NCBI GenBank assembly: GCA_026387405.1
Contig: JAPLLV010000057.1
Location: 1,503 to 65,502, forward strand
DNA from: Candidatus Omnitrophota bacterium
GTDB taxonomy: Bacteria > Omnitrophota > Gorgyraeia > Gygaellales > Profunditerraquicolaceae
Direction of reading: 5' to 3'
DNA: 64,000 nucleotides
Of this stretch, positions 23,617 through 46,048 are shown one piece after another; the first letter of the stretch is position 1, and each line of letters opens with the position of its first letter. Made by a program: the position numbers and the translations under genes. A model generated the notes under the pieces. The model saw only the letters and a list, made by a program, of their open reading frames with translations, had not been told where the DNA came from and did not search any database.

Positions 23617-23660
23617 TTATATAGAGGTTCATATTATATATAGGAAGGAATTTTAATTAA

Positions 23661-23752: not shown

Positions 23753-23796
23753 TGTTCATGGTTCTCAATGACCGTTTGGAAATAGAAAATTTAATT

Positions 23797-29000: not shown

Positions 29001-32000
29001 TTAACGGTTCCTTTGAGTCCTTTAGCGGCGGCATCTCAGAAGCTCCGACAGGTATGGGGGCTACGCAATACCAAAGCAGTGTTATTGACGGCTGGTTCAA
29101 TTTGGGTGGAGCAAGTATTAGCCGTATCTACGCGCCTTCATTCGGTTACGCGGCCTCCGGCAATGTTAAATTCGGCTATGCCGCAGTCAATGTGTCGGAC
29201 GTATCTTCTTCAGCGGCGCAGGCAATCCAGCAGGAGATCCAGCCGTTTGCTTTACGTGATATTCTTGGTAAACAGATTACCCTTTCAGTTTTTGCCAGGA
29301 ATGGAAATACAGGTTCGGCCACCACGACAATAGGTTTTGAGGCCCAGGATTCCGCAGGCAATAGTATCACTACTAATTTCATCGGTCTTAAGAACAGCCT
29401 GAGCATACTTGATTCAGGTTTTACTTTGTTGAGTTACACCGTTACTGTGCCCACCAATACTTCCAGGTTATTTGTCCGCTTATTCGGCGCTGATGCCTCC
29501 AACGTCACGAACACCGGGGTAGTCATTTATGACGGCGTTAGTCTTGTGTCAGGATCCTTGGTTTCGCCCTTCAGGCCCACGCCGATCGTGGACAGCGGGA
29601 CCCAGACCCAGAAGATCTACGGCGATATGGAAATAGATATGAGCGGCCCCTCAGGCGACATGGCAAATTACGGTGTATCCTCCGGCGGTAACTTGGGTAT
29701 TCAGGGCCAGTTGGCGGTAGGCGGAGGAATTCAAGTCTTCGGCGGTTCAATGACCTTAGGCCGCGGCGGCGCTAATAGCGGTATCTGGGCCTATCCTATG
29801 GGAAACACAAGCGGAACTACTGCCTATAAATACGTAGTTACCTCGGTGAATTCCGGTACTATAGAATCTATGCCCCATCAGGTATATCTTTCTAATGGCC
29901 CGTCAGCACTTACTACGTCTAACTCTATAAATATAGGTTGGAATGTTGATTCCAACGCCTCCAGCTATAAACTGTATGGTCGTTCTCCCAGCAGCTTGGG
30001 ATTAATTGCTTCTGGTTTGACCTCAACCTACTATAATGATAATGGCAGCGTTTCGCCTAATACCGGTGTCCAGCCGCCTACTTTTTATCAAAATGCCTGG
30101 ACCCCACCGGGTTCTTTGACTATGGAAGGCGGCCTGCGCGTCGGAACCGGCGGCAATCCTAGTTATGTCGGCAGCGGCTCCGCCGTATCTTTCGGCAATG
30201 CCTATATCGTCGGCAACCTTGAGGTGGGCGGCACCATCTATGGCGACATTTCCGGAGCGGTAGCCGGCTGGAACAAAGTTGGGACAAATGTCCAATTGAA
30301 AAACATAGGAGATAACGTCGGCATCGGGACGACGGATCCCGGAGCGAAACTGGAAGTTGCGGGGCAGATCAAGATGACCGGCAGTACGCCCGGCGCTGGA
30401 AAAGTTTTGACCTCCGATGCTAATGGTCTTGCGAGTTGGCAGAATGCGACCGGGAATGTGGCATCTGTTTTTGGACGCGCCGGCGCAGTGACCGCTCAGG
30501 CCAATGATTACACCTGGGCGCAGATCGATAAAACGACATCGAGCCTTGCGGATATCACCACGCGGTCTGCCGGAGATTTGAGTTCCGGGAATCTCGCGAT
30601 CGCACGTATGCCCACAGGCGGCGACTGGGGCCTTTCTTCGAATTTGAGCATCAGCGGAGGCAACGTCGGCATCGGGACGACGAGTCCGAGCGCGAAGTTA
30701 GAAATCAGGAGTGATAACAACGGCGGTATCGGTCCTACCTTGATTTTGAGTAATAAAACCGGCGGCGCATTTGGGACATTGGGAAATGCAGCTCAGATTA
30801 ATTTTGGGCTGGATATCTCAGAAGCGCTTACCGAGCCAAATGCGGCTATCCAGGCAATTCTAGAAGATGATTCTAATGCTGCCTCTGGTCTAAGGTTTTT
30901 CACCTTTAATGGTACTGCCAGCGGCGAAAGGGTTAGGATAGCAAATAGCGGCAATGTCGGCATTGGGACGACGGCGCCGGGGAGCAAGCTACATTTACAT
31001 GCCACAGCGATTTCTGGAAGAGAATCGTTGATGAAAGCGACGGTTTCAGATGCTGGGACAGACGCCTTTTACATTGGGAATATTACGAGTGCCGATAATT
31101 GGTTTGTTCCTGCTTTTGCAGGCATGGTTAATTCAACTAACGCAAGGCAAAGTTTGACATTTGCTGGTTTTGTAACTGCGGCTAACGATGCTTCTAATAC
31201 ATCGCCAGTCGTGGATTTCTTAGCTGCAAGAAGCACCTCTACGACTGACCCGCTCAATGGAACTCTTACGGGAATAGCGAACAGAGATTTGTTTGCATTC
31301 AGGACTCTTGATGGTTCTGGTAACAGCGTTTACAAAATGGTTATGAATAGCTCAGGCAACGTCGGCATCGGGACGACCAGCCCTGCCTACAAATTAGACG
31401 TCAACGGCACCCTTAATGCCACTAATATAAATCAAGGGGGAACTGGGCTTATAGATGGGACAGGGACAACAAACTACCTGCCGAAATGGAGTGACAGTAA
31501 TACTCTGACAGGGACCAGCCTTGTTTATGACACCGGCACCAACGTAGGCATCGGGACGACGAGCCCCTCGGCAAACCTCCAGGTTTCTGACGGAAGTTTA
31601 GTCAACTCAGCTCTTATCTCAACGGATAAAATACTTTTAACTTATCAGAATACCGCTCCAGGATTGAGCATTATTTCTGCCGATAATACAACGGCGTCCA
31701 ACAGGGCAGTGTTTAAGGGTGTTCGGTCACGAGGGACATTAGTTTCTCCTCTAGCTCCGTCTACAGATGACGACGTGCTGTCCTTTTTAGGTGCTATATA
31801 CGATGGAACAGCTACGCAAGCAACGGCAATGGTGGGGTTTAAGGTTGATGGGGCGGTTTCTTCGGGCGTGGCTCCGCAAAGAATAAGCTTTATCACATCG
31901 GAAACGACAGGGGCAGCAAGACAGGAAAGGTTAACAATAAAAGCAAACGGCAACGTCGGCATCGGCACTACCAATCCCACTGCCACCCTGCATATAGCTA

Positions 32001-35000
32001 CTGGAGGGATCAGATTTCCTGATAATTCCTATCAGACTAGCGCTACAGCAGGAGGGAGCGTTACTAACATAGCCACTACAGCTCCCATCACCGGCGGCAC
32101 TATCACCAACACCGGCACCATCGGCTTAAGTTATGCCAATGGCCTGAAACTCTCAGGTAACGACCTTGTCCCTGACTATGGCTCAAGCGCAAATACCGTT
32201 GCCCAGGGTAATACTGCCGTCAATGTCAATACTACCGGCAACCTCTCAGGTGGAGCTACCGGCACTGCCGGAGGCGGCCTGAATGTTACCTTAAATACGG
32301 TAAACAATCCCACATTCTCTACTTCTGTTACCACACCCATACTCCAGAATGCCTCTAGCGACTTAACCTTACAGACTACTACTTCTGGGAATATACTCTT
32401 ATCCCCTTCAGGTAATATAGGTATAGGAACTACTTTGCCTCAGGCTAAGCTGGAAATCAAAGCCGCAGGCACCTCAACCGGCTTTGCCTTAAAGGTGCAG
32501 GATTCAACCGGAGCCGATAAGCTTGCCTTCCTTGATAACGGTTCTCTTGGTATAGGCACTACCTCACCCGGTTCCTACAAACTCTATGTGGCAGGGGATG
32601 CCTACTTAGGCGGCCTGACTTTATCCAACGGCAGTATTAACTTCGGCAATGACTTAGATATGCAGAACCATCTGCTCCTAAATATCGGCAATGCCGCAAC
32701 AGACTTTACCACCGGCGGCGGCCTGAACTTAGCCGGCAACCTCGCAGTAAATTCCACCAAGCTCTTTGTAGATGCCACTAACGGCAACGTCGGCATCGGA
32801 ACAACCTCACCAACGGCAGCACTTACCTTTCCAGCAGCATCAACAGGAATTGTGCTCCACAATGCGGCAGACCAAACAACAAATACAGAAACAGGATTTG
32901 CGAGGTGGTCAGGCAATAGCTTTCAAATTGGAACAAATAAAACTGGAACGGGGACGGCTCGCAGTTTAGAGTTCTTTACTGGCGGTGTATCACGATTTAC
33001 TCTCACCGGTGCGGGAGATTATTCTCCAACGTCAGATAATACTTTGTTTATGGGGCTATCCAACAAAAGATTTTATACTGCATATTTTTCAAATTCCATA
33101 AATATCGGCACTGGCACCAGCCCGCAAGTATATCTTGCCGCTTCGGGTAATAGTTGGCTAACAGGCGGCAACGTCGGCATCGGGACGACAGGGCCGATAT
33201 ATAAGATAGATATGTTGTTTTCAAATAATCTTGCCGTTGGTGATGGGATTAGAATCGTAAACTCAAACACAGGAAATTTAGCGGCTGCTATGATTAGAGT
33301 GGAAAACAATACTGGTTCTGACGGTAGGCTTTTCAAACTCGGTTCTGGTTATAGTGCGTATAAGACAATCGTGGGAAATGATTTGGGTTTTTACAACTAT
33401 ACTTCTGGCAACATATCTATTTTGAATGATGTCGCCACTGGCAAAATACTTTTTGCCGCAGGTGCGGCTAATACGGCACAAATGTTAATCGATACGAACG
33501 GCAACGTCGGCATCGGCACAACTGCTCCATTAGGCCTGCTGCAGGTAGGTACTTCGCCTAATGCGCCTTTGGTGGTCTTGGCAAGCGGCAACGTCGGCAT
33601 CGGGACTACGAGTCCTGGGGCAAAACTAGATATTGGCACAGGAACAAGTGCCGATATTATATTTGGGGCTAATACGACCTACACTACTTACAACATTATT
33701 TCTACCAACGGAGTTATGACAGATGCAGGCTTTCAAGGTTTTGGCGGAGGCGGAAGTGCAGAATTTTATATGCAAGCTCCAGCTACTGGAGGATTACACT
33801 TTAGAACAAATGGGAATAGTGAAAAAGTAACAATATTAAGCGGCGGCAACGTGGGCATCGGGACGGCGGCACCTTTAGGTCTCCTGCAGGTAGGCACTTC
33901 TCCTAATGCTCCTCTGGTAGTCCTGGCTAACGGTAACGTAGGAGTAGGTACTACTTCTCCTGCTCAAACCTTAGATGTTACCGGCACCGCCCGCATCACC
34001 GGCAATGTCGGTATAGGCACTACAGCCTCTTCCACCTACGGCCTCTATGTGGTGGGCAATGCCTACTTAGGCGGCCTCACCCTTGCCAACGGCGGTATTA
34101 ACTTCGGCAATGACTTAGATATGCAGAACCATATGATCCTGAATATCGGCGATGCCGCAACAGACTTTACCACCGGAGGCGGCCTGAACTTAGTCGGTAA
34201 CCTCGCAGTAAATGCCACTAAGCTCTTTGTAGATGCCACTAACGGCAACGTAGGCATAGGCACTTCCACTCCAGGCACAGCAGCCTTAGCAATAATGAAT
34301 GGCAACGTCGGCATCGGGACGACGAGTCCGGGGAGTATTTTCTATGTTAATGGCTCAAGTGGCGCACCGTCAACCCTTAATTCTTTGATGACTCTAAGGG
34401 ATAATAATACAAATATAGGTTTTCAAATGGGTGCTACAACGGGTTATGGATGGATACGTTCGGCAGATATTTTAAGCACAGCATATAGTGGAATTAAGGT
34501 AGGCAATGGTTATGTTTCCGTAATGGATGGGTCAACGAATGACAAAGTCTATGTAAATACAACAACTGGCAACGTGGGCATCGGCACGACGAACCCGGGG
34601 GCAAAGTTTCAAATTTCTGGAACAGGTGTATATGATGCAAGTGGTGCTGCAAGATTTGATTTGCTCAATACAACTTACGGGACATCTTGGTTTACTCACG
34701 TTGGAGATACTGGAAATTGGCAAGTTGCGAATGGGGCGGCAACAAAATTACGTATATCTCCGACTACGAATGGGAATATGGATTTTTTTAATGGAACGGG
34801 TAATGTCATTGTCAATGGCACAGGCAACGTCGGCATCGGCACGACCAGCCCTGTCTACAAATTAGACGTCAACGGCACCCTTAATGCCACTGCTATAACT
34901 CAAGGGGGGGTTGGGCTTATAGATGGGGCAGGGACAGCAAACTACCTGCCGAAATGGAGTGACAGTAATACCCTGACAGGGACCAGCCTTGTTTATGACA

Positions 35001-38000
35001 ACGGCACCAACGTCGGCATCGGGACGACGAGTCCGGTTCAGGCTTTACAGGTTGCGAATGATTTTGCTATTGATACGGTTAATCATCGCGTGGGTTTGGG
35101 ATTAACTAATCCAGCTTATCAATTTACCATTGGCAGTAACTTGAGTAATGAAGCGACAAGGGGAATTACTGTCTTGCAGGGTTCTGACTCTGCAAGTGCG
35201 GCTAATTTGAATTTCAGAAAATCCAGAGGGACATTTGCTTCTCCAGAGACAGTTTCGAATCATGACTATCTAAACCTTACAACTTTTTATGCTTATACCA
35301 ACCAATGGCAATCGCCAGCCGCCTTTGGTACTTTTGTTGATGGTACAGTAAGCTCGGGAGTGAATCCTGTCAGCATGTTATTTTCGACGGGTTCAGCTAA
35401 TGAAGCATATAATCCTTTTACGAATAATTCAGTAAGAATGTATTTAAAGCCCGATGGCTCTGTTGGTTTGGGTGGTTCAATGGGCACAATGGGAAGTTTT
35501 GCAGGATCAAAAATGGTTATAGATACTGCCGGCAACGTCGGCATCGGCACGACAAACCCAACGAGTCTTTTATATGTAGCAGGCGACGCTAATATCACCG
35601 GCACGTTCAACGCGGGGATATTTTCGCCATTTACGCTCTCGGTTCCAGGGGCAGCGTACCTGGCTTATAGCTCCGGCAACGTCGGCATCGGAACGACGAA
35701 TCCGGGGACGAAACTTACCGTTTCAGGTTCAGGATTTAACGGCGGCTACGGCACATTTATTTCAACCGATAGCGGCAACGGGGTTTTGGTTCAAGGAGTA
35801 GATGGTGCGGGAATAAACGATACTGCGTACTATGCTTTTTCTGACGGTAATTCGGCGCATAACGCTTTCATTGGATTGGTTGGTACGGCTGGTAAAGGAA
35901 GCGGGAATGTTGGTGATTTGCGGTTTGCGGCAGGCAATAATACCGAGAGAATGAGAATATCTACCGGCGGCAACGTCGGCATCGGGACGGTGAGTCCCGC
36001 ATATAGGCTGAATGTTGCAGATGTTGCCGAGAATACATTTGGCCGGGACATCGTCATACGCAACGGCGATGAGACCAATTACTGGCGTTTGAGCCAAGGT
36101 ATCAATACATCAGGATCGGCTTCTGCAGGCGTTCCGAATAGCAGTAGTTACCTGCTGTGGGAGCAGGGGGGTGGTTATGGCCAAAGCGGAGGACTTGCCG
36201 TAGGTACGAACAATGCATATGCCGGACCACTCATGCTTGTTTCGGGCGGGTCTGAAGCGGTAAGAGTATTGAACAACGGCAACGTCGGCATCGGCACGAC
36301 GAGTCCGAACGCGCCACTTTCAATTGTTAATGCCGTTGGAAGAAGATTCATACTAAATGACTCTGCTACCAGTTATGCCATGGGATTAGGGATAAACCTT
36401 GGACAGGCAGCAAATTCTATGGGTGCATTTATAGGATATGGGGATGGTACTGCCGGGTCATCTAATTTTGAGATTGTTTCAGCAGACCAGGCGTGGCCAT
36501 ATACTTCTTACACAACTCGATTTGTCGTTCAGCGCGGCGGAAATGTCGGCATCGGGACTACGGGGCCGGGGGCTAAACTTGAAGTTGCGGGAACCGGCGT
36601 GGGATCTGGCTGGGGGACCAACTTATCTACTGCTCTAGTTGTTGACGGCGGGGGTTTGGGTACTACGGCAGGAAGTTATGTCTATCCTGCCGAAATCCAA
36701 AATACCGCGGGCAACCGGTTGCGGCTCCAATTTGCTCCATACCGCAGAGTAGCAGGCGCGTCTTGGCAAGGTTCTGCATACCGGATGCAATACGCGGTAG
36801 ATAATTCGTTTACTGACGGAGGCAAGGCATACATTGAACTTGGAGGCGACGATTCTACGTCTTCAGGCGGCGGCTTCGTCTCTCTCGGCACCAACGGTAC
36901 GGACCGTTTGTCCATTCTGGACAACGGCGCCGTCGGCATCGGCATAATCACTCCGTATAGTTCACTGCATATTTCGAACACGAACCCGTCAAATGCTATT
37001 TTGACTCTGGGAGGAGGTTTTGCCGGCACGGTTGATACCGGAGGTCAGATAGTATTCAGGACTGATTTCGGCTCAACCGATACTGTCGGCGGAGCCTCGA
37101 TCAGAGGTTTGAACCAATGGGGCGGTGAGAGCAGCGGACAAGCTATGGATCTCGCCTTTTATACGAATCAGAGGACCGGAGCCAACGCATACACAGGATT
37201 AACCGAACGGATGAAGATCACTCAGGCAGGCTACGTCGGCATCGGGACGACCGCACCCCAAGGCAGGTTAGATGTGTCTGGTATTACGGATGCAGGTTCG
37301 GTCTATTTCCGCAGTACGGGGCGGCCTTTCCTGGATATAAAAGGTGGGGCGAACAGCTATAGTACTCTTAGATTCTCTGATGGTTCTGATGGGACATATC
37401 GCTGGGACATAAATGTTAATCCTGGCAATGATGCTCAACCGAATGCCCTTGGCTTTTGGAGTACGACGCTTAGCGCGCCGGCACTCACGATTCTGCAGAG
37501 TGGCTACGTCGGCATCGGGACGACAAGCCCAACGAGCCTTTTAGATGTAGCAGGCAATCTTAACGTCACCGGCACGTTCAGTATGGGGGCATTCTCGCCA
37601 TCTACGCTCTCGGTTCCAGGGGCAGCGTACCTGGCTTATAGTTCCGGCAACGTCGGCATCGGGTTAACAAATCCTGGAGCAAAATTGGATATCCAAACAT
37701 CAGTGTTAACTGCCCCAGTACTTCGAGTTATGAATTATGGTAATACTGGTAATTCTAACTTTACAATGACTATTCACACCGATCAACCCGCTAATGTAGG
37801 AGGTGCCTATCCGCAATATACCGGGGCTGCTTTGAAAGTGACTGCGTTTCCAAACGCTTCCGCAGATAATGCCGGGTATGTTTTGAAGGTTGGGAGTGAT
37901 GATTCTTCGGGTTCTAGTTTTTCTCCGTATTTGGTTGTAAAGGCAGCTAACGGCAACGTCGGCATCGGGACGGCGAGCCCGGATGCAAAATTAACAATCA

Positions 38001-41000
38001 ATTCTAATACGGTCGCTTCTCCAGGTATTTTATCTAGTGGTACCGTTAGCCACATTGTCGGAGCAGACGCCGCAGTTAGTCGGATGCTTATTGATGTGTT
38101 TGCTAATACCGCATCTGTTACATTGCGCAAGGCAGACGGGACTGCCGCTAGCCCAACCGCGTTGGCAGCTAATGACCTCATAGGGCAATTTGCTTTTCAG
38201 GGATATGGCACAACTGCTTATTCTACGGCAGCCAAGGCGGCAATGAACGGCTTTGCATCCGAAAATTGGACTGATACAGCACAAGGAACTTATTTAACAT
38301 TTAATACTACACTAAACGGGGCAGCGGGGGCTTCCGAGAGAGTAAGGATAGATAATGCCGGCAACGTCGGCATCGGGACGACAAGTCCAGGATATCCGCT
38401 TCAAGTCGGTAACTATGCATATTTAACAAACGATGGTACTAACGAGTTTGCTATTTTAGGGGCAAAGACAGCAAGTGGTGGTTTAGAACGATTGTTCTTA
38501 GATGCAAATTGGGTTCGTATCGGGACAAATTATTCAAGCCCCGATATAGAGATAAAATCAGGCTACGTCGGTATCGGGACGACGAGCCCGGGATATCTTC
38601 TTGAACTTTACAATGCAGCTAATCCTATCATAAATCTAAAAACGGCCAATTATAGCACTGGTTTTTCTCAATATGAAGGAAGCTGGTACGGTGTTTCAAA
38701 TCCAACGATCATTCAACCGTTGGCTCCAGCGACCTCGCACGATGTTGTAATCACGGGAGTTCAAAATGGCCCGTTATCAGGGATTGTAATTAAATCGACC
38801 GGCAACGTGGGCATCGGGACGACGAGTCCCCAAACCAGCCTTGAGATTGGCTATAAAACACAACGCTATTTGATGTTCTCCGATTCAAGGCTGGCGCATG
38901 GCGTCACCAATTTCGTTCCGACCAATGTCTTTGGTTCATTTGAGCAGTACACCTCCGACGGCCTCGGCGGGTTCATCTTCCGCGGCGTGACCGGCGACGT
39001 TGACCGAACGGCGCTCTATTTCGTCGGCGTCAGCGGCAACGCGGCTCCCACCAACGCTCCGATTGTCTTCCGCGGGGCAAAAAAGAGCGGGGCCGGATAC
39101 ACCGACATGGCGAACAATGAACCGGTGATCCAGTTCCAGTCCGGTTCCACGCCGTTGAACATTATGACGTTCATGGGGAGCGGCAACGTCGGCATCGGGA
39201 CGACGGGTCCTCTGCAGATGTTACAAGTAGGGCAGTTAAGCGGTTCGGCGGTCAGCGATGGACAGTTAGTATTGGCAAAATCCAACGGCGGTCCTAATCG
39301 CGCTTTCAAGATCGGCCTAGACAGCAATTATGCGCTTTCCATCGGTGATTACGGATACCATGCAGGTATTGCATATACTCCGTATTTGACCATGTCCTAT
39401 GCGACCGGCAACGTCGGCATCGGGACGACGGACCCGCAGTATAAATTAGACGTTAATGGAACCGCCAGAATTAGCGGCGTGACTCTGCTATCAGGCGGTT
39501 TATCAGACCTTTCCACCTTGACTGTGACAGGAAATACGAACCTTGCGACAACTTCCGGCAACGTCGGCATCGGGACGACGGCACCCGGAACAAAACTTCA
39601 GGTATCCGGGGATGGAAATGCTAATACATATAGAGGGGTTATAAGAATAGATGATACGGGTACTTCAAAATGGGGAGGAATCGCATTTCCAGATAGCGTA
39701 GGCGCTGCTGATAGTGCCGCGAATAATTATTATTTTATAGGGCGTGGAGATGCTATAGCTAATAGAACTTTCACTATCCATATACCTACAGCAGCTAATT
39801 ATGGCAGTGGCGGGCAGCCGATTTTTGGAGTCTATTCCACAGGGTCGGACCAATTATTTAGAGTTCAGGCTTCTACGGGCGAAACATATATAAAGGGCAG
39901 CCTTGGCATCGGGACGACGAGCCCCGGCTTTACATTGGATGTCAACGGCACGGTTGCTCGTGTGGGTCCGACTGGCAGCGGAGTTGCCTATACTCAATAT
40001 GGAAATAGTGCGACTGATGCTAATAATTATTTAGTAGGTGACGAAAATGGTGATTTTGAATTCTATCAAGGTAAATATGGAGGAACAGGTAACGATCGTA
40101 TGCGTATCAAAGCTGGCGTCAACGTCGGCATAGGGACTGCGAGCCCAAGTGCTAAATTGCATGTAAAAGGAGATGCATATGTCGGCGTTCCTTATTTAGA
40201 TAGCGATACATCCGATAAGACCTTGACTATCGCGACTATGACTACCGGCAAGCCCTATTTATCATTCCAGCAAGGCGGCAATAGCGGTTCTGAAATTTAC
40301 CACGATAATACGTATTTAAACTTCGGAGAAAATAGCGGAGGTTCCCGTTCTGGTCCTTATATGGTAATTAAAACCGCAGGTGCCGGCCAGGGCAGTGTCG
40401 GCATCGGGACGACGACGCCAGTGGCTCCTCTGCAAGTCGTTGGTCGGGCTACCGCCGATTATCTGGACCAGGGACACAGCGATCTTGGAACGAGCGCTTC
40501 ACAATCGGCGCTTTCAACATGGGTCGCGATGGCAAGCGCGACGGTTTCTTACGGCACGGTGGAGGCGAACACGCGCATATATAAAAATGGCGATCTGGTC
40601 GCGGAAAAAGCAACGGCCGGGGCCGGCACATTCAACGTTGTCGCGGGCGACATCATTACCACCAACAATAAACCGGTGGGTCTTGTAGCAGAAGGCGCGC
40701 AGTACAGTATCGTGCCGCTGACCCTTTCCGGCACGCAGTTCGGTTTCTACAGCAGTCGCGACGACCCGCAGATAGTATACGTGTATGCGCCCTACGGTAC
40801 AGCGTATGTTGAGTTCTATCAGGACGCTTATAAAGGCGGCACACCGGCCGCCACGGCCACTGTGGCGCAAGGCCAGATAGCAACACTGACAGGAACAGCA
40901 ACCGTAGCTGCCCATTACAACCGCGTTTATGCTTCATCGCCTGTTATTATGACCAAAGCAGGCACCGGCGGCGACTACGATATCGTATCGCCGGCAAGCC

Positions 41001-44000
41001 ACGAGTTAATTACAGCCCGAGGTTTTTCGAGCTATAGCGGGATGACGGCGGCTACGACAATGACATTGTCGTCCAGTGGCTTATATCTGCACTCCGACAA
41101 CGGGCTTGTCTTTGGCAATGCTATTGGCGACGGCGCGGGTGGAGATACAGATATGGCATTGCCATGGAAAGCTGCGGGCGATACCTATATTATCCCTCAC
41201 GCGGTGTCCGATTTCGGTCTTATATCCCTTGAACCAACGACTGTGCGCGTGTATTACTTAAGTTCCGGTGTATGGACGCTCTATAACTCATATGACCTTA
41301 CTTCCGCTTCGCGCACTACCCCCGCTTATATCACAGTGGGTACGCAGTCGGGTGCTGACGCATACATCATTGCAAGCGGTCCCGTTCTTGTGGTTGGCGA
41401 CAGGCCGTTTTACATACGCCTTAATGACACTGCTGATGATGAATATGCGGCTTTGGGTTATATGTCAGGTTCTCGCTCTCTATTCGGGGGTGTTGACGAT
41501 TGGAATGCGACAGGCGCCAATATGTATTACAACGGCACAGGCAACGTCGGCATCGGGACGACGAATCCGCAGTATAAATTAGACGTTAATGGAACCGCCA
41601 GAATTAGCGGCGTGACTCTGCTATCAGGCGGTTTATCAGACCTTTCCACCTTGACTGTGACAGGAAATACGTACCTTGCGACAACTTCCGGCAGCGTCGG
41701 CATCGGGACGGCGAGCCCGGGAGGTAAGCTTGAAGTTCAAGGCGGGAGAAGTTTCTTCTCGGCATCTAATGAACAGTATGGGGTAGGTGTGAAATATTCT
41801 TCATCTGGCGGTGCCGTCTACTTCGGCGCTACCAGCAGTTCCGGTACTCCTGACGCTGCAATTTCTAATGCTGGTGGCGGTACACTTATGACTTTACAGA
41901 ATGGCGGCAACGTCGGCATCGGGACGGCGACACCTCTGCAGTCTCTATCTTTGGGTATTTTTGCATCACCGAGCGGTGCTTTATTAGGATATGCCAATTC
42001 CGACCAAGCCGGATTAAGTTATTATTCAGCTCAAAACTTTCCAACTGCTGGACAATATGATCGTGTTCTAGACATCAATGCCGGAGGCGGTAATGCCGGG
42101 AGTCATATCAATTTTTTAACGCAGCCGGTTAATGGTTCTTCGGTCATACGAATGAGTATAGATGACACCGGCAACGTCGGCATCGGGACGACAGCGCCGG
42201 GGGCAAAATTGGATATTGAATCGACTACAGCAGATAATCAGATTTATGTCGGAAGTGTCGCACCGAGCATTAGGCTTTCAAACAATGCGGTATTAGCATC
42301 AAGAACCAATGAAGGCGTCATCGCTCTAACGACGACCGCAAACCAGTATATTCCTGGGAGTGTTGTAGGGGATTTGAATATCTATTCAGCAGCCCCAAAT
42401 TCTGGAACCGTCGGAGGAATTTTATTTGGTACTGGCGCTTCACAAGTGGCACGGATGTATATTAAATCAGACGGCAATGTCGGCATCGGGACAACAGGAC
42501 CAATATTCACACTTCAAACTGCAGGTGCTGCTAATGCGGGCGATGGAACATTTATATTAAATGGGGGGGCACAATCGACAACCTTCTTCGACGCATATGT
42601 CGATGGGACCAGCGCTTATCAGCATACGCCAGGTATGATGGTGCGCAAGGATAGTAGTGGCACGCGCATTGACCAAGCGCCGGCCGCGCTCACGCTATTT
42701 AATAATAACGGTACGAATAATACCTGGGTAAAGTTGGTATTAGCGAACAGGGAAGCTTCAGGGACAGGAAATCCCGTGAGCATTGCAGGCATCGCAGCGC
42801 AAAAGACCTCAGGAGCTGCTGCTGCATGGGCATCGGGTGATCTCGTTCTCTGGGCAAAAAACGTTGGATCGCAGGTTGAAGTTTTGAGGGCAACAAGCGG
42901 CGGCAACGTGGGCATGGGGACGACGGCGCCAGGAGCTAAATTGGAAATAAATCTAGGAGGGATTGATCTCTTGCCGGGCGGGAATCCAGCAACTGCAAAT
43001 ATGGTACGTTTCTTCGGCGGCCAAAGTGGTACGATTTGGGGACAACAATGGGATATGAATATTGCAGGAATAAATGTTAATAATAGTAGATTAACGTTTG
43101 CGGGGGGTAATAATTCAGGTAGTTTGCCACAGGCTAATATTCTAACTCTTGTGAATAATGGCAACGTCGGCATCGGCACCACCGCGCCCAATGACCCTCT
43201 GCATATTTATAAGAGCAGCGGCAATGCATATCTTCGTACTGAAGCAAATAATGGAGCGGGGTCGGTTAGGGCTTATACATTCGGCCCGAATACTACTGAC
43301 TGGAATCTTCACGTCAGGGATGCGACTGGGAATTACGATATCATTACAGCCCTATGGTCAAACGGCAACGTGGGCATCGGGACGACAAACCCGGGAGCAA
43401 AATTGGAGGTCAATGGCACGATCACCGCAACCAGTTTCTCCGGAACCTCATCCAATGTTTCACCATACTATTATGTCACTGCTGGTAATGGATATGGAAT
43501 CGGATATTGGTCTGCTGCTCCATCAACCTATGGGACATTTATGAGTAATTCCGCAACATATCAGTATGGAGATGTAAATGACTACTATATTGCCAATGTG
43601 ATGAGTTCGGGCACAGGCAGGGGTTTTACTTGGTCATATGAGACAACTCCCAGCATGGCGTTAAATGCCAGTAGCGGTAATCTTGCTATTAAAGGCATTT
43701 TTAAAGCTAATGGAACAGGAAATAACTATTTCGCCGGTAACGTCGGCATCGGCACGGCGGCGCCGGGTCAAAAACTCACTATTTATGATACTGCTGTTGC
43801 TGGTGTTGCGCTAAGATTGGGGTATTCGGATACTGCTTATTTCGATTTTGCAAGAAATTATTCTACGGGAACGTTATCAATTCAAGGTAATCAAACTGGT
43901 ACTAACAATATTGTGTTAGCACCAACTAGCGGCAACGTCGGCATGGGGATAGCCGCTCCACTTACGGGAGCAAAGCTTGACGTTAGTAATTTACCCGCGG

Positions 44001-46048
44001 CATGGACGGCGCTGGCCAATACCTATGGCGCGACTGCCTTTACGTACCCCTATAGTTCCGATGAAACGACAGCGGCAGATTACGCCGCATTCTTAGGAAG
44101 GGTTGGTTGGTATGGGGGAGCGAACGGTAATACAAGCGTCTATGCCTTCAAAGCGGATGTTGGCAATGGGTCAGCGTCGTGGGGGCACCCTAAAGCTATG
44201 TATTCATTCTACGGAAAGTTGAATACAAACGTTGTAACCCAGGCATATCAGAAGTACTACGGCCTGTATCTTGATTCTGTGACAAAGGATGCCACTACTT
44301 CTCTTGCAGAGAACTGGGGGATCTATCAGGCTGATACGACTGCCAAGAGCTATTTTGCAGGCAACATTGGCATCGGGACGACTGCGCCGGAGGCAAAATT
44401 AGATATTCATGCCGGAGATTCCGGAGCTGACGTTGAAAATATAAGGTTTAGTCGGGGAGACCCTTGGAGGTATAACTCCATTCACAGTTGCTCTTGGACA
44501 GGAGGGAATGCTTTTATATCATTTTTAGTGCATGACGGAGTTGGAGATACTACTCAGGCAACTGTCATGACATTAAAAGGAAACGGCTACGTCGGCATCG
44601 GGACGACGGGGCCGGGGTATAAACTCGATGTGTACCAGGATTCGGATGTGTGGCATGCAAGTTTCGGTGGAAGCACGGGAAGAGTAAAAATAGGCGGGCA
44701 AACTACAGGAAACCGAGGCGTTATACAGGCGACGACCGACCTATTATTGCAACGAGACGGCGGCAACGTCGGCATCGGCACGGCGAGCCCGACACAGAAG
44801 CTCCAGGTCCATGGCAATGTGTACATTGATACGTACGGCCAAATAAAGATGCTTACTGGTAATGCTTGGGGCAGATTTATCGGTCAGTATGCGCAAACCG
44901 GAGCGAACGACGCGCTCTTTATTTCTGATAACTACGATAGAGTTGCGGGAACGATAGACCACACATCGCTTGGCACCGCGGAAATAGAGTTACGCGGAGC
45001 CAATGCCGGCCCGGGAGCGATCTATCTGCGCAGCGGTGCCGTAAATACCGCTCCGACTGATACGCTCACTGTTACCGGCGGCAACGTCGGCATCGGGACG
45101 GCGGCACCGCGGACATCTTTGGACATTCTGACTTCTGGTACTGCGAATGTAAATGGAGATGTACCTCATGGCCTTGTGCTGCAAGGTCCGTCCTATGGTC
45201 TCGGAACATACACTGGCCAGCTGGTCGTGCAATCCAACGATGCTCAAGCCGCAAATATGGGCGGGTCCATTGCATTGGGCGGCAGGTATGTTGATTCGAA
45301 TTCTACGGGCGCTTATTTTGCAGGCATTCAAGGCGCAAAAGAGAATAGCACTTCCGGAAATCTAGCCGGATATTTGGCGTTCAGAACGCGCACTACCGGT
45401 AATGCAGACACGGAAAAAATGCGAATCGACAGCGCTGGTAATATCGGCATCGGGATGGCGGCGCCCGTTGAGCCCCTTCAGGTACATCTTGCCACCGGTA
45501 AGAATGTGGGTTTTTTCAACAGTACACTTCCTGCAGTCGGGTCATTCAATGATAACTTCAGTAGTTGGGGAGATTTACAAGTTGGTCTCAATCTGTACTC
45601 TATGGCCAGCGGCAACGTCGGAATCGGGACGACGGCGCCCGGGGCAAAACTGGAAATTGTGGGCACGAATTCACTGATCAGCAACAATTCCGGGAATATC
45701 ACAATTACGCCCAATACCAATTTAAAAGTGACAACGCAGTATTATTCCGCGAAATATTCGTGCACCACCACATTGAGTTGGGATAACGGCAACGTGCAGT
45801 ACATCCAGCTTGCCGGCGGGGGCAATACGTTTACTTTTGCCAATCCTCAAGGGGGGGGGCGATATCTCCTTATCTTAAAACAGCCGTCCTCTGGTTCTGC
45901 CGGCACCGTGACCTGGCCTGCGGCGGTTTTGTGGTCGGCCGGAACAGCGCCGACGTTAACAGCGACGAACAGTAAAGTAGACATCATTACTTTTGTTTAT
46001 GACGACACGAACAGTAAGTATTACGGCGGCTCGAGTTTGAATTATTAG
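26003..46048 (+). CDS. giant (6,681 aa) secreted tail-fibre-like repeat protein
   Basis: Single uninterrupted reading frame of 20,046 nt. ATG at 26003 is preceded by GGAGG. N-terminal signal anchor (VMTFCFFIIALLFFW). About 60 copies of GNVGIGTTxPxxKLxV are spaced irregularly, with a unique ~110-aa C-terminus. The minus-strand ORFs inside are mirror readings of the repeat. Confidence 0.85.
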   Translation: MKNIFTKPSGFKSVMTFCFFIIALLFFWDTVFGEMARQISFQARITNKDKTVLSGSLSVTFRLYSAETDGTALWTETQTVTADSSGIISCYLGSVTPFPDSVDFNTTYYISLEVSGDGEMSPRIKVVPTPAALNSRLFDGLLSSQFLQAGVLTVSGYFAQDYTGIDHNAMTISYSPASGSYNAVDISYGSAGGTGVALQVTQNGTGNIMQLNYDGTPRMVVEMNGNVGIGTTSPSQALEVNGTVKATTFLGDGSSLSGLSGVISGLTTGKIPKAASTTSIADSVIYETSSNIGIGTTNPGSKLDVLGTLRLSGSTSGYVGLAPAAAAGAATYTLPSSSANGLLKNTDGALSWDTTNYLTSGTIASGITNYLAKYTGTSAIGASTMIYDDGSNIGIGTTNPLQKLQVGGDINIEGGSGLMINNTAASGQYLRGNGTRFVDASIAAGDLPTAIDAAKIADGSVSNGAFQYLSGVTSAVQTQLDSKAPKAGPIFSGTVTVGSMSSAGFVKNDAAGVLSGGNTLTPGTDFTTANLVNGTGINMGGTLTNRIVGSAGNVTVNVSSGVPTSVTSDTNVTGSIADNALTLGWSGQLPVSRGGTGAYTLTGILKGNGTDAFTAAVSGTDYLTPAGTLTGLVQSIVSGTSYITGGNLGIGTTAPSAKLEIKAAGTGPDGFALRVTDAEGTDKLALLDNGNLGIGTTAPGAALEIGGQIKITGGAPGENKVLISNALGLASWSSAASIIDANSLDYDKFKDAMTLDASTTVSFGNYDYIFDLTGTGNFRAQDNGSDVFTVKNTGNVGIGTTNPISKLAVTGKITVADDANANDSNGKIYIGKDSGGSTEGAPENGSQYIMWNDSFNAGGKTGWMYVSGGLSATSINIRNTNTLVFGDTNDTPQTVSYSPTGGVGGVGAFTFSKEIVTQASSPSYLTFSKANNNTLYSLEFNPDSSPQTLRLVKKVSGGSIIPLFEFDTAGSFGVFDESGNKSTIISQGRQWQQEFNNLIFNGSFESFSGGISEAPTGMGATQYQSSVIDGWFNLGGASISRIYAPSFGYAASGNVKFGYAAVNVSDVSSSAAQAIQQEIQPFALRDILGKQITLSVFARNGNTGSATTTIGFEAQDSAGNSITTNFIGLKNSLSILDSGFTLLSYTVTVPTNTSRLFVRLFGADASNVTNTGVVIYDGVSLVSGSLVSPFRPTPIVDSGTQTQKIYGDMEIDMSGPSGDMANYGVSSGGNLGIQGQLAVGGGIQVFGGSMTLGRGGANSGIWAYPMGNTSGTTAYKYVVTSVNSGTIESMPHQVYLSNGPSALTTSNSINIGWNVDSNASSYKLYGRSPSSLGLIASGLTSTYYNDNGSVSPNTGVQPPTFYQNAWTPPGSLTMEGGLRVGTGGNPSYVGSGSAVSFGNAYIVGNLEVGGTIYGDISGAVAGWNKVGTNVQLKNIGDNVGIGTTDPGAKLEVAGQIKMTGSTPGAGKVLTSDANGLASWQNATGNVASVFGRAGAVTAQANDYTWAQIDKTTSSLADITTRSAGDLSSGNLAIARMPTGGDWGLSSNLSISGGNVGIGTTSPSAKLEIRSDNNGGIGPTLILSNKTGGAFGTLGNAAQINFGLDISEALTEPNAAIQAILEDDSNAASGLRFFTFNGTASGERVRIANSGNVGIGTTAPGSKLHLHATAISGRESLMKATVSDAGTDAFYIGNITSADNWFVPAFAGMVNSTNARQSLTFAGFVTAANDASNTSPVVDFLAARSTSTTDPLNGTLTGIANRDLFAFRTLDGSGNSVYKMVMNSSGNVGIGTTSPAYKLDVNGTLNATNINQGGTGLIDGTGTTNYLPKWSDSNTLTGTSLVYDTGTNVGIGTTSPSANLQVSDGSLVNSALISTDKILLTYQNTAPGLSIISADNTTASNRAVFKGVRSRGTLVSPLAPSTDDDVLSFLGAIYDGTATQATAMVGFKVDGAVSSGVAPQRISFITSETTGAARQERLTIKANGNVGIGTTNPTATLHIATGGIRFPDNSYQTSATAGGSVTNIATTAPITGGTITNTGTIGLSYANGLKLSGNDLVPDYGSSANTVAQGNTAVNVNTTGNLSGGATGTAGGGLNVTLNTVNNPTFSTSVTTPILQNASSDLTLQTTTSGNILLSPSGNIGIGTTLPQAKLEIKAAGTSTGFALKVQDSTGADKLAFLDNGSLGIGTTSPGSYKLYVAGDAYLGGLTLSNGSINFGNDLDMQNHLLLNIGNAATDFTTGGGLNLAGNLAVNSTKLFVDATNGNVGIGTTSPTAALTFPAASTGIVLHNAADQTTNTETGFARWSGNSFQIGTNKTGTGTARSLEFFTGGVSRFTLTGAGDYSPTSDNTLFMGLSNKRFYTAYFSNSINIGTGTSPQVYLAASGNSWLTGGNVGIGTTGPIYKIDMLFSNNLAVGDGIRIVNSNTGNLAAAMIRVENNTGSDGRLFKLGSGYSAYKTIVGNDLGFYNYTSGNISILNDVATGKILFAAGAANTAQMLIDTNGNVGIGTTAPLGLLQVGTSPNAPLVVLASGNVGIGTTSPGAKLDIGTGTSADIIFGANTTYTTYNIISTNGVMTDAGFQGFGGGGSAEFYMQAPATGGLHFRTNGNSEKVTILSGGNVGIGTAAPLGLLQVGTSPNAPLVVLANGNVGVGTTSPAQTLDVTGTARITGNVGIGTTASSTYGLYVVGNAYLGGLTLANGGINFGNDLDMQNHMILNIGDAATDFTTGGGLNLVGNLAVNATKLFVDATNGNVGIGTSTPGTAALAIMNGNVGIGTTSPGSIFYVNGSSGAPSTLNSLMTLRDNNTNIGFQMGATTGYGWIRSADILSTAYSGIKVGNGYVSVMDGSTNDKVYVNTTTGNVGIGTTNPGAKFQISGTGVYDASGAARFDLLNTTYGTSWFTHVGDTGNWQVANGAATKLRISPTTNGNMDFFNGTGNVIVNGTGNVGIGTTSPVYKLDVNGTLNATAITQGGVGLIDGAGTANYLPKWSDSNTLTGTSLVYDNGTNVGIGTTSPVQALQVANDFAIDTVNHRVGLGLTNPAYQFTIGSNLSNEATRGITVLQGSDSASAANLNFRKSRGTFASPETVSNHDYLNLTTFYAYTNQWQSPAAFGTFVDGTVSSGVNPVSMLFSTGSANEAYNPFTNNSVRMYLKPDGSVGLGGSMGTMGSFAGSKMVIDTAGNVGIGTTNPTSLLYVAGDANITGTFNAGIFSPFTLSVPGAAYLAYSSGNVGIGTTNPGTKLTVSGSGFNGGYGTFISTDSGNGVLVQGVDGAGINDTAYYAFSDGNSAHNAFIGLVGTAGKGSGNVGDLRFAAGNNTERMRISTGGNVGIGTVSPAYRLNVADVAENTFGRDIVIRNGDETNYWRLSQGINTSGSASAGVPNSSSYLLWEQGGGYGQSGGLAVGTNNAYAGPLMLVSGGSEAVRVLNNGNVGIGTTSPNAPLSIVNAVGRRFILNDSATSYAMGLGINLGQAANSMGAFIGYGDGTAGSSNFEIVSADQAWPYTSYTTRFVVQRGGNVGIGTTGPGAKLEVAGTGVGSGWGTNLSTALVVDGGGLGTTAGSYVYPAEIQNTAGNRLRLQFAPYRRVAGASWQGSAYRMQYAVDNSFTDGGKAYIELGGDDSTSSGGGFVSLGTNGTDRLSILDNGAVGIGIITPYSSLHISNTNPSNAILTLGGGFAGTVDTGGQIVFRTDFGSTDTVGGASIRGLNQWGGESSGQAMDLAFYTNQRTGANAYTGLTERMKITQAGYVGIGTTAPQGRLDVSGITDAGSVYFRSTGRPFLDIKGGANSYSTLRFSDGSDGTYRWDINVNPGNDAQPNALGFWSTTLSAPALTILQSGYVGIGTTSPTSLLDVAGNLNVTGTFSMGAFSPSTLSVPGAAYLAYSSGNVGIGLTNPGAKLDIQTSVLTAPVLRVMNYGNTGNSNFTMTIHTDQPANVGGAYPQYTGAALKVTAFPNASADNAGYVLKVGSDDSSGSSFSPYLVVKAANGNVGIGTASPDAKLTINSNTVASPGILSSGTVSHIVGADAAVSRMLIDVFANTASVTLRKADGTAASPTALAANDLIGQFAFQGYGTTAYSTAAKAAMNGFASENWTDTAQGTYLTFNTTLNGAAGASERVRIDNAGNVGIGTTSPGYPLQVGNYAYLTNDGTNEFAILGAKTASGGLERLFLDANWVRIGTNYSSPDIEIKSGYVGIGTTSPGYLLELYNAANPIINLKTANYSTGFSQYEGSWYGVSNPTIIQPLAPATSHDVVITGVQNGPLSGIVIKSTGNVGIGTTSPQTSLEIGYKTQRYLMFSDSRLAHGVTNFVPTNVFGSFEQYTSDGLGGFIFRGVTGDVDRTALYFVGVSGNAAPTNAPIVFRGAKKSGAGYTDMANNEPVIQFQSGSTPLNIMTFMGSGNVGIGTTGPLQMLQVGQLSGSAVSDGQLVLAKSNGGPNRAFKIGLDSNYALSIGDYGYHAGIAYTPYLTMSYATGNVGIGTTDPQYKLDVNGTARISGVTLLSGGLSDLSTLTVTGNTNLATTSGNVGIGTTAPGTKLQVSGDGNANTYRGVIRIDDTGTSKWGGIAFPDSVGAADSAANNYYFIGRGDAIANRTFTIHIPTAANYGSGGQPIFGVYSTGSDQLFRVQASTGETYIKGSLGIGTTSPGFTLDVNGTVARVGPTGSGVAYTQYGNSATDANNYLVGDENGDFEFYQGKYGGTGNDRMRIKAGVNVGIGTASPSAKLHVKGDAYVGVPYLDSDTSDKTLTIATMTTGKPYLSFQQGGNSGSEIYHDNTYLNFGENSGGSRSGPYMVIKTAGAGQGSVGIGTTTPVAPLQVVGRATADYLDQGHSDLGTSASQSALSTWVAMASATVSYGTVEANTRIYKNGDLVAEKATAGAGTFNVVAGDIITTNNKPVGLVAEGAQYSIVPLTLSGTQFGFYSSRDDPQIVYVYAPYGTAYVEFYQDAYKGGTPAATATVAQGQIATLTGTATVAAHYNRVYASSPVIMTKAGTGGDYDIVSPASHELITARGFSSYSGMTAATTMTLSSSGLYLHSDNGLVFGNAIGDGAGGDTDMALPWKAAGDTYIIPHAVSDFGLISLEPTTVRVYYLSSGVWTLYNSYDLTSASRTTPAYITVGTQSGADAYIIASGPVLVVGDRPFYIRLNDTADDEYAALGYMSGSRSLFGGVDDWNATGANMYYNGTGNVGIGTTNPQYKLDVNGTARISGVTLLSGGLSDLSTLTVTGNTYLATTSGSVGIGTASPGGKLEVQGGRSFFSASNEQYGVGVKYSSSGGAVYFGATSSSGTPDAAISNAGGGTLMTLQNGGNVGIGTATPLQSLSLGIFASPSGALLGYANSDQAGLSYYSAQNFPTAGQYDRVLDINAGGGNAGSHINFLTQPVNGSSVIRMSIDDTGNVGIGTTAPGAKLDIESTTADNQIYVGSVAPSIRLSNNAVLASRTNEGVIALTTTANQYIPGSVVGDLNIYSAAPNSGTVGGILFGTGASQVARMYIKSDGNVGIGTTGPIFTLQTAGAANAGDGTFILNGGAQSTTFFDAYVDGTSAYQHTPGMMVRKDSSGTRIDQAPAALTLFNNNGTNNTWVKLVLANREASGTGNPVSIAGIAAQKTSGAAAAWASGDLVLWAKNVGSQVEVLRATSGGNVGMGTTAPGAKLEINLGGIDLLPGGNPATANMVRFFGGQSGTIWGQQWDMNIAGINVNNSRLTFAGGNNSGSLPQANILTLVNNGNVGIGTTAPNDPLHIYKSSGNAYLRTEANNGAGSVRAYTFGPNTTDWNLHVRDATGNYDIITALWSNGNVGIGTTNPGAKLEVNGTITATSFSGTSSNVSPYYYVTAGNGYGIGYWSAAPSTYGTFMSNSATYQYGDVNDYYIANVMSSGTGRGFTWSYETTPSMALNASSGNLAIKGIFKANGTGNNYFAGNVGIGTAAPGQKLTIYDTAVAGVALRLGYSDTAYFDFARNYSTGTLSIQGNQTGTNNIVLAPTSGNVGMGIAAPLTGAKLDVSNLPAAWTALANTYGATAFTYPYSSDETTAADYAAFLGRVGWYGGANGNTSVYAFKADVGNGSASWGHPKAMYSFYGKLNTNVVTQAYQKYYGLYLDSVTKDATTSLAENWGIYQADTTAKSYFAGNIGIGTTAPEAKLDIHAGDSGADVENIRFSRGDPWRYNSIHSCSWTGGNAFISFLVHDGVGDTTQATVMTLKGNGYVGIGTTGPGYKLDVYQDSDVWHASFGGSTGRVKIGGQTTGNRGVIQATTDLLLQRDGGNVGIGTASPTQKLQVHGNVYIDTYGQIKMLTGNAWGRFIGQYAQTGANDALFISDNYDRVAGTIDHTSLGTAEIELRGANAGPGAIYLRSGAVNTAPTDTLTVTGGNVGIGTAAPRTSLDILTSGTANVNGDVPHGLVLQGPSYGLGTYTGQLVVQSNDAQAANMGGSIALGGRYVDSNSTGAYFAGIQGAKENSTSGNLAGYLAFRTRTTGNADTEKMRIDSAGNIGIGMAAPVEPLQVHLATGKNVGFFNSTLPAVGSFNDNFSSWGDLQVGLNLYSMASGNVGIGTTAPGAKLEIVGTNSLISNNSGNITITPNTNLKVTTQYYSAKYSCTTTLSWDNGNVQYIQLAGGGNTFTFANPQGGGRYLLILKQPSSGSAGTVTWPAAVLWSAGTAPTLTATNSKVDIITFVYDDTNSKYYGGSSLNY

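Follow-up and report, generated by a model that had tools for sequence, protein, structure and literature searches.

A 23-base word at the module boundaries of a giant Omnitrophota fibre gene as a candidate homology junction for in-frame module exchange

Introduction

The window analysed here is a stretch of 64,000 nucleotides (nt) from a Candidatus Omnitrophota bacterium (contig JAPLLV010000057.1 of assembly GCA_026387405.1), and the element of interest within it is a single giant gene at 26003..46048 on the forward strand, whose product is a fibre built as a chain of about 60 modules, each of which begins with the loop peptide GNVGIGTT. At about 45 of the module boundaries this loop is encoded by one DNA word of 23 bases, GGCAACGTCGGCATCGGGACGAC, or by a close variant of it, and many uncultured bacteria and phages have the same short word where their fibre modules meet. 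On balance, the word is probably best understood as a minimal homology junction for the in-frame exchange of modules, which is kept uniform by gene conversion and probably also by selection for compatibility.

Receptor-binding fibres determine which cells are targeted by phages and by predatory bacteria, and they evolve through module swaps, the physical basis of which is on record for just a handful of phages in culture. Both motif-mediated modular exchange and concerted evolution are already known; the DNA signature described here is unusually sharp, countable and testable. If the proposed role of the word is correct, it accounts for the way in which very long fibres can be built and rebuilt with their reading frame and fold kept, it makes the word a sequence tag with which exchangeable adhesin modules can be found in metagenomes, and it supplies a design rule for the engineering of fibre chimeras.

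Conservation of the word within the gene

A search with the peptide finds 63 copies of the GNVGIGTT-type motif in the fibre protein. In the DNA, GGCAACGTCGGCATCGGGACGAC is present in 10 exact copies and in 14 copies with one mismatch, and a further 18 copies with two mismatches and five with three raise the count from 24 at up to one mismatch to 47 at up to three; shuffled sequences give no match to the 23-mer. All 47 copies lie on the forward strand, in frame, within a single open reading frame (ORF), and they span positions 28382 to 45633. Some of the mismatches alter the encoded residue (for example GYVGIGTT). The original prediction, made from the sequence of the window, had put the number of repeat cores that are identical or differ by one base at about 45. 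Only 24 copies fit that description; a number of this size is reached at three mismatches, within which 46 copies are found from position 30,300 onward.

The central and C-terminal array (30311..45633, forward strand) contains 57 motif copies, of which 46 are those within three mismatches of the word, and the spacing between its copies ranges from 57 to 1149 nt (19-383 codons) with one reading frame maintained throughout. The six N-terminal copies (26675..28405, forward strand), which encode GNVGIGTT, SNIGIGTT and GNLGIGTT, have mixed codons, with two to five synonymous differences each. They stand outside the homogenised set, yet the sixth of them (28382) is within two mismatches of the word; the first five spell the peptide with different codons, exactly as had been quoted in the original prediction.

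The number of synonymous differences from the word per copy, counted only in copies that retain at least six of the seven canonical residues, has a bimodal distribution: 23 copies have none, 13 have one, 10 have two, one has three, one has four, five have five and one has six. The drifted copies, with four to six differences, sit in clusters. One island of two drifted copies within the central array (32411..32563, forward strand; five to six synonymous differences) belongs to modules which resemble, at the protein level, the N-terminal modules at 27938 and 28070, and a second island (33932..34267, forward strand) consists of three drifted copies with four to five synonymous differences.

The uniformity of the word is not a reflection of codon usage. 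In the gene and its neighbours AAC is used at 32%, GTC at 20%, ATC at 30%, GGG at 19% and ACG at 21%, and the GC content of third codon positions (GC3) is 0.44-0.52; the motif codons have a GC3 of 0.84, against 0.44 in their surroundings. With this usage the chance that one copy is canonical at all seven codons is 8.9e-5, and the pairwise synonymous difference among copies is about 2, compared with an expected value of 4.8. The three glycine positions each have their own fixed codon (GGC, GGC and GGG), and this position specificity, combined with the unbiased usage, excludes codon bias as the cause, in agreement with the original prediction. Translational selection on a critical loop, acting through accuracy or decoding speed, is extremely improbable for the same reasons. 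By inspection, all codons of the word form Watson-Crick pairs at the wobble position (NNC or NNG), and AAC and ATC are commonly preferred codons, as selection of this kind would lead one to expect, but other NNC/NNG spellings are essentially absent, and the N-terminal copies, together with entire arrays in other genomes, encode the peptide with freely varying codons. In particular, the orthologous N-terminal copies of two related Omnitrophota, on contigs L128 and L129, vary freely at synonymous sites. Since these copies and the arrays of contigs L133 and L002 (discussed below) spell the peptide freely, the peptide does not require the word, and the earlier statement that synonymous identity is not demanded by the protein is borne out.

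The conservation is confined to the word itself. When the 57 central copies are aligned, conservation drops to background one codon beyond the word: a proline at +9 is kept in 96% of copies and a leucine at +13 in 84%, and the commonest third base at each of these positions reaches just 30-39%. The homogenised stretch is thus 23-25 nt and not the whole repeat unit, and outside it the module bodies have diverged near-randomly, both in protein and at synonymous sites, so that the flanks cannot be aligned even as protein. Eighty pairs of copies have an exact run of 23 nt or longer in common, and 34 copies belong to one or more of these pairs.

Break points of duplicated and exchanged modules

Five duplicated patches are present within the gene, all on the forward strand. 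They pair 31346..31566 with 34814..35034 (93% identity, extending from one motif to the next), 32549..32825 with 34010..34288 (85%), 35531..35691 with 37502..37662 (88%), and 39404..39580 with 41537..41713 (97%, with no synonymous and four non-synonymous codon differences); the fifth, an older duplicated module, pairs 33499..33617 with 33844..33962 (78%, offset 345, with 19 synonymous and three non-synonymous differences). The five duplications reported in the original prediction are therefore all real, including the last, which had been described as similar mainly at the protein level and is so at 78% DNA identity. Each of them runs from motif to motif: the starts lie -9 to +9 nt from the start of a motif, the ends lie -7 to +19 nt relative to the end of the next motif, and the sequence outside is unrelated. 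Motif neighbourhoods make up about 15% of the array. The offsets differ, from 345 to 3468 nt, which indicates that the pairs are isolated copies of one module and not relics of one big tandem duplication.

The codon differences within the pairs form a separate observation. In the young pairs the synonymous and non-synonymous differences number 0 and 4, 4 and 7, 7 and 11, and 14 and 17, and the older pair reverses that balance (19 and 3), which suggests relaxed or diversifying selection right after a module has been copied.

The five pairs, which with 78-97% nucleotide identity are young or fairly young, are what could be cited in favour of a recent amplification in which the central repeats would be identical by descent. 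As a general cause of the shared word such an amplification is very improbable, because the flanks of the other 45 or so copies are unalignable even as protein, because the synonymous sites of the conserved proline and leucine are randomised only a few codons away from the word, and because the word is found in unrelated contexts of other genomes, where the flanks are 33% identical. Of the two processes put forward in the original prediction, recombination or gene conversion is thus upheld by patches which are bounded by motifs, while recent expansion applies to five young pairs only, the modules being near-random outside the word.

An equivalent analysis was carried out between contigs, using nucleotide patches near motifs which different contigs share over 100 nt or more at an identity of 85% or higher, and control positions shifted by up to 300 nt. 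The analysis was limited to inter-contig patches near motifs, the all-against-all version having been diluted by unrelated tandem repeats of flanking genes. Internal end points fall within 10 nt of a motif in 56 of 130 cases, compared with 10.9% for the shifted controls (p = 8e-21), an approximately four-fold excess, and 9 of 54 patches have a motif at both ends, where 0.64 are expected. Several patches are 97-99% identical inside, with nothing alignable outside.

A junction of the same kind separates the window from its relatives. L128 and L129 are syntenic contigs that carry the N-terminal part of an orthologous gene, which in each case ends at the contig end; the flanking genes of L128 are mostly 86-90% identical to those of the window (78-93% overall), and those of L129 about 74%. 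In both contigs the module after the first motif corresponds to the window's module after the fifth motif. Upstream of that motif they are 84-89% identical to the window at 26675, and downstream the better match is the module after 28070 (75-76% identity, against just 40-44% for the module after 26675). Modules amounting to about 1.4 kb (26699..28093, forward strand) are accordingly present in the window and absent at this place in L128 and L129, with the junction inside the motif. Because both contigs switch context inside a motif, the array is mosaic between related species; the original prediction had expected mosaic structure between strains. The accompanying prediction of length variation between strains found no counterpart in six contigs from other sequencing runs, all of which represent the same strain (identity to the window 99.95-100% across the terminal 1.6-5.0 kb that they cover); independent assemblies agree with the final 4.4 kb of the gene.

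The left ends of these six contigs, which come from Logan, all lie in or beside a motif copy. Logan contigs were presumably built at k = 31, and we read these ends as an assembly effect of repeated 30-mers at that value of k and not as biology. The word breaks short-k assemblies, and this may partly explain why contigs of related Omnitrophota break off within the orthologous genes.

The word in other genomes and phages

Among relatives detected by protein similarity, an Omnitrophota contig (L004) has all four of its canonical-peptide copies within one mismatch of the word, a phage contig that includes capsid and adaptor genes (L007) carries a one-base variant of the word three times, and a contig with a GC content of 57% (L001) uses the word as well. 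In metagenome contigs the exact word occurs at at least 120 loci, with 179 non-redundant contexts among the matches listed. These listed contexts are always within long ORFs, the background GC3 of which ranges between 0.15 and 0.90 (median 0.40), and their flanks have a mean pairwise identity of 33%, the third base of the proline codon reaching 36%. Very AT-rich ORFs can remain canonical: five of five copies do so in L166 (GC3 0.23-0.24), and six of seven copies in L252 (GC3 0.29) are exact 23-mers. The viral contig L280, which includes a major head protein gene, has five exact copies in an ORF with a GC3 of 0.37. One-gene homogenisation cannot be the whole story, because the word is common to many genomes and phages of any base composition, a point that the original prediction did not include. 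The literature that was searched contains no mention of the peptide (GNVGIGT, NVGIGT) or of the DNA word.

The dominance of one spelling can be measured against alternatives. In the viral collection the canonical word is found at at least 120 loci and the all-T-ending spelling at 71, while GC-matched alternatives which differ by five, three and two C/G swaps are found at 0, 3 and 1 loci, respectively. In an unbiased viral sample, obtained with a fully degenerate pattern (245 motifs from 119 loci), the canonical word ties as the commonest spelling, with 6 of 245 compared to 0.07 expected from the per-codon frequencies, and the one-step neighbours of the word rank next.

The word is nevertheless not universal. 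The peptide is spelled freely in an Omnitrophota fibre whose base composition is similar (L133) and in the fibre of an AT-rich phage contig (L002), and other dialects are distributed across AT-rich contigs: GGTAATGTTGGTATAGGTACA/T in L082, L438, L375 and L397, and GGCAACGTAGGTATTGGTACT in L399, L421 and L111. The contigs which share a dialect have reduced diversity within their arrays, and the dialects look like variants of the junction word, which may represent separate exchange pools or just related genomes. The mean pairwise synonymous difference in the first 19 arrays is 0.4-4.3 within arrays, against a mean of 4.6 between arrays, and in a larger set of arrays the ratio of observed to expected diversity within arrays extends from 0 to 1.04.

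GC-biased conversion, or another form of biased repair among the many copies, would make the word a neutral by-product of frequent ectopic heteroduplex formation, free of selection and without a role of its own, that genomes share only through descent and occasional transfer. At each of its seven synonymous sites the word has G or C, against a surrounding GC3 of 0.44; the canonical codons are enriched over each ORF's own usage in the unbiased viral sample; and among the variants in the window the C/G alternatives (such as GTG and GGC) account for 20 codons against 48 A/T-ending ones, a large share given the AT-leaning background. A bias of this type predicts many GC-rich spellings, however, and the three that were tested gave the 0, 3 and 1 loci noted above against at least 120 for the canonical word; AT-rich dialects (L082, L399, L438) are homogenised too. 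This explanation is unlikely, and since it would still involve recombination at the word, it amounts to a sub-case of exchange at a homology junction and not to an alternative to it.

Alternatively, the word could be a recognition site for a nuclease, site-specific recombinase, methylase or retroelement, or an RNA signal, and be conserved for its reader. The dominance of a single spelling, with equally GC-rich alternatives nearly absent, and the persistence of the word in ORFs with a GC3 of 0.23-0.29 represent the specificity expected of such a site. The gene, however, is not adjoined by any candidate factor, the only recombinase being a XerC/D-like one about 7.8 kb downstream; all copies are direct repeats, which excludes an invertase-type system; the internal pairing of the word is, by inspection, limited to a stem of at most 4 bp, and a scan against Rfam detected nothing inside the fibre gene; and free-codon copies coexist in the protein and its orthologues, so that there is no need to invoke a factor that acts on expression or folding. 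The graded dialects and the cloud of one-step mutants are also better fitted by homology matching, and a recognition site is on this evidence rather improbable.

Two specific systems were considered and rejected. Site-specific inversion of the Gin/Cin/Min or Rci shufflon type is incompatible with 47 of 47 copies being direct and with the lack of an adjacent dedicated recombinase, and the repeats do not form the template repeat/variable repeat (TR/VR) pair of a diversity-generating retroelement target. No reverse-transcriptase domain was detected in the scanned ORFs of the window of at least 150 aa.

Further observations concern the distribution of the motif in viruses. The exact word also occurs on two IMG/VR contigs (L108, L313) labelled GVMAG, that is, bins of giant-virus metagenome-assembled genomes (MAGs). 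Among cultured phages, Thermus phage YS40 gave the only match to a two-motif module. One module of the window (45209..45455, forward strand) has 77% DNA identity to L002 5863-6109 (protein P0001); L002 and L003 represent an AT-rich phage tail-fibre gene, and the L002 contig, with a GC content of 37.6%, carries a terminase gene. The match ends on its right in a motif copy. The motif copies that flank this module in L002 are drifted, with AT-ending codons, so that conservation is higher here in the body of the module than at its junctions.

Proposed mechanism

The explanation favoured here, exchange at a minimal homology junction, would operate as follows. The word would be just long enough to serve as the homology for strand exchange, either of the RecA type or by template switching, and it stands in frame in a loop at which modules are structurally interchangeable. 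With an anchor in each of two copies, a crossover or a conversion tract could then copy, replace, delete or import whole modules, and these moves would leave the reading frame and the fold intact. Given non-homologous flanks, the heteroduplex between copies would be confined to the word, in which new single-base variants would be repaired back to the majority spelling, while copies with more than about three differences would leave the exchange and then drift. The bimodal distribution of synonymous differences, in which copies with zero to two differences are separated from a clustered group with four to six, fits such a homology threshold. The commonest spelling would have the most exchange partners, which would lead to one dominant, standard word and a few local dialects across the gene pool that phages and bacteria have in common. 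The suggestion in the original prediction that the 23-mer could be a recombination substrate is thus the best reading of the word.

Several points weigh against this explanation or limit it. Unbiased conversion homogenises copies without slowing the drift of their consensus, so that conversion alone leaves the dominance of one spelling across genomes unexplained, and an additional force is needed, which we infer to be compatibility selection, frequent transfer or biased repair. Of these we prefer selection for agreement with the spelling that is most common, possibly in combination with GC-biased repair and module transfer. A length of 23-25 nt lies at the lower limit for efficient RecA-type recombination in E. 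coli, the organism for which the figure holds. The arrays of L133, L210 and L005 share the peptide and are nevertheless not homogenised. The sole junction between species falls in a drifted N-terminal copy instead of a canonical word. No recombinant was directly observed, the six contigs from other runs being of the same strain, and an orthologue of the central array was found neither by a tblastn search of Joint Genome Institute (JGI) metagenomes with the motif-free insert of 375 aa described below nor by a search with residues from 39155-41857, which gave only partial matches with 25-62% identity. Finally, assemblers may mis-join at a shared 23-mer and so inflate the mosaic signal between contigs. 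Mis-joins cannot create the conservation of the word, so this caveat is limited to the mosaic test, and at the N-terminal junction copies the longest identical run is, by inspection, a few bases.

A wider possibility, which we regard as doubtful though worth stating, is that the word acts as a natural “standard connector”, a DNA convention of a pool of fibre modules that circulates among phages and predatory or episymbiotic bacteria (Omnitrophota, the Candidate Phyla Radiation (CPR) and others) and is kept by positive frequency-dependent selection for recombinational compatibility. A module with the commonest spelling would then be able to swap in frame into any fibre, whatever the GC content of the genome. 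If true, the connector would be a countable, testable case of the linkers postulated in the modular theory of phage evolution.

The fibre protein

The listed ORF begins at a GTG codon (25958-46048, 6696 aa). The true start is probably the ATG at 26003, because the orthologues in L128 and L129 carry the sequence MKNIFTKPSGF which follows it, and L128 starts with it; the protein would then be 15 residues shorter, at about 6,681 aa, and its first residues (MKNIFTKPSGF...) precede a hydrophobic signal or anchor segment. No Pfam domain was matched in the fibre protein, including HEAT, TPR, dockerin and Peptidase_S74. A phmmer search of PDB sequences finds matches to structures of the mosaic adhesive trimer (MAT) fibre proteins of Bdellovibrio bacteriovorus, 8OND (Bd2133), 8OML, 8ON4 and 8OJN, with E values from 8.5e-10 to 2e-3, in alignments that run through GN[VL]G[IV]G..P..KL segments. 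As judged from these features, the product is a predicted secreted or surface fibre of the trimeric beta-helix kind found in MAT proteins and phage tail fibres, with both the trimer and the display being predictions. It is classed here as a very long MAT-like, phage-fibre-like adhesin, and its membership of the MAT family proper appears only partly established.

The signal segment is adjoined by an N-terminal beta-rich domain (26075..26314, forward strand) with weak similarity to the MAT N-terminal domain, which in such fibres is a conserved beta-rich unit of about 130 aa right behind the signal peptide: NCBIfam model NF053851 (Bdello_MAT_N) matches residues 25-104 with 21.3 bits (E 1.9e-4), below its cutoff of 60 bits, and a BLASTP comparison with a B. 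bacteriovorus ORF gives a weak match whose positions are consistent and whose E value of 1.2 is not significant. A motif-free region of 626 aa (28430..30307, forward strand), the orthologue of which is partly present in L129, gave no relative in a protein database search, and a 375-aa insert without motif copies midway along the array (40415..41539, forward strand), which produces the gap of 383 codons between motif copies, gave no tblastn relative in JGI metagenomes and no NCBIfam match. The C-terminal tip domain of 102 aa (45740..46045, forward strand) is a predicted beta-sandwich (AlphaFold2 (AF2) predicted local distance difference test score, pLDDT, 87) without an S74 chaperone domain, and its predicted structure has weak fold matches to phage tailspike domains. 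The tip is 74% identical to that of protein P0005, and a search from a three-sequence alignment found just five genome loci, an alignment of seven sequences being too divergent for searching. The arrangement, with no S74 domain and another beta-rich domain at the C-terminus, is NS74-like; fibres of the MAT kind have variable C-terminal tips, which bear an S74 chaperone/protease or, in the NS74 subgroup, a different beta-rich domain.

Genomic surroundings

NCBI lists the proteins MCX5697578.1 and MCX5697601.1 under a Candidatus Omnitrophota MAG. The fibre gene lies downstream of a locus resembling a type II secretion system (T2SS) or type IV pilus (9056..24276, forward strand), which encodes GspF, LTD/GspK-like, PilN-like, secretin, GspE, TPR and prepilin-like proteins and the gene order of which is kept in L128 and L129; a gene for a Big_13 protein (24344-25936) stands between the secretion locus and the fibre gene. 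The window thus presents a very long gene directly downstream of a T2SS-like or type IV pilus-like locus in an Omnitrophota genome. Directly upstream of the same locus, positions 663-7436 encode a toxin-like protein of 2257 aa with Rhs / TcdB / SpvB / FG-GAP features, which may be a second exported effector of the T2SS-like system.

Immediately after the fibre gene, 46089-47868 encodes a DUF4082 protein and a protein with an ALK/LTK-type glycine-rich domain. On its own contig the related fibre P0003 likewise has Gly_rich_2 proteins as its neighbours, and the DUF4082 and glycine-rich proteins may be partner or accessory proteins of the fibre. The spacer after the DUF4082 gene contains two GC-rich hairpins, at 46652-46680 (CCCCGCCAT-TTA-TGGCGGGG) and at 46707-46735 (CCTCGGG-TTTTAG-CCCGAGG), and all six independent Logan contigs stop at 46664, the centre of the first. 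Given two nearby genes of the IS200/Y1-transposase type, the hairpins at 46652-46735 could be terminators or elements like repetitive extragenic palindromes (REP).

Further downstream are IS200-like genes, LigA and cell-wall genes. The two IS200-like Y1 transposase genes (Pfam Y1_Tnp) lie a few kb 3' of the giant gene, at 47987-48658 and 53158-53793, and the protein of the first is found on 6 contigs in the protein collection. The XerC/D-like recombinase gene already mentioned (53853-54740) stands amid housekeeping genes. A tRNA-Pro (CGG) gene at 49393-49470 is the sole Rfam or ARAGORN match in the window.

Comparison with known systems

By analogy, the fibre/adhesin locus of T-even phages appears to be the closest precedent. 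In gp37 and gp38, glycine-rich motifs flank hypervariable segments, and exchanges take place in or near the motifs (Tetart 1996/1998, as relayed in Trojet 2011, PMC3157838). As far as that second-hand account goes, both systems consist of receptor-binding fibre genes with variable segments between short conserved motifs, and in both, break points at the motifs produce chimeras; exchange in the T-even phages was demonstrated by crosses, while here it is deduced from sequence comparison. The present gene has no sequence relationship to gp38. It also differs from the T-even genes in having one DNA word of 23-25 nt which is synonymously fixed and repeated about 45 times in one gene, and this word, unlike the T-even motifs, is found in bacteria and phages alike, over a very broad range of base composition.

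In the MAT structures, the trimeric beta-helix domains have capping loops with a related consensus at their edges (Caulton et al. 2024, PMC10769870). The fibre loop motif resembles the MAT capping-loop consensus V-G-G/N-pi-x-x-P-x-x-x-L (PMC10769870), and the MAT proteins and the present one are alike in being chimeric fibres with variable tips, in bacteria that are thought to attack other cells. The present protein is about 6-7 times longer and belongs to a different phylum, and the match of its N-terminal domain is weak. The main text of the MAT paper does not deal with nucleotide-level conservation or motif recombination, the word “recombination” being restricted to its methods and “shuffling” not being used (PMC10769870).

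Giant extracellular-protein genes next to T2SS-like loci have already been described in Omnitrophota, in a study whose available text does not mention “recombination”, “codon” or “tail fiber” (West-Roberts et al. 2023, 10.1101/2023.11.21.568195). The present gene is similar to these in being a very long gene directly after a secretin/GspE/GspF/pseudopilin locus, but its product has 6.7 thousand residues, compared with at least 30,000 aa in the published examples, going by that portion of the text (West-Roberts et al. 2023). Its domain content is neither of the Archaeovorin nor of the Dockerin type, the two types of giant gene given in the text available.

The modular theory of Botstein and Susskind reportedly holds that short homologous linkers at the boundaries of phage modules direct exchange within a shared pool, the linkers being said to lie at boundaries between genes. 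To our knowledge, this linker hypothesis has received little direct support. The candidate linker described here differs from those of the theory in that it is inside a gene, in frame and countable.

In concerted evolution, repeats within a gene are homogenised by gene conversion or unequal crossing-over. The fibre arrays conform to this pattern in that similarity within arrays is greater than similarity between arrays and in that conversion-like patches are present. They depart from it in that the homogeneity covers just 23-25 nt of units which are 57-1149 nt long, and yet extends across genomes.

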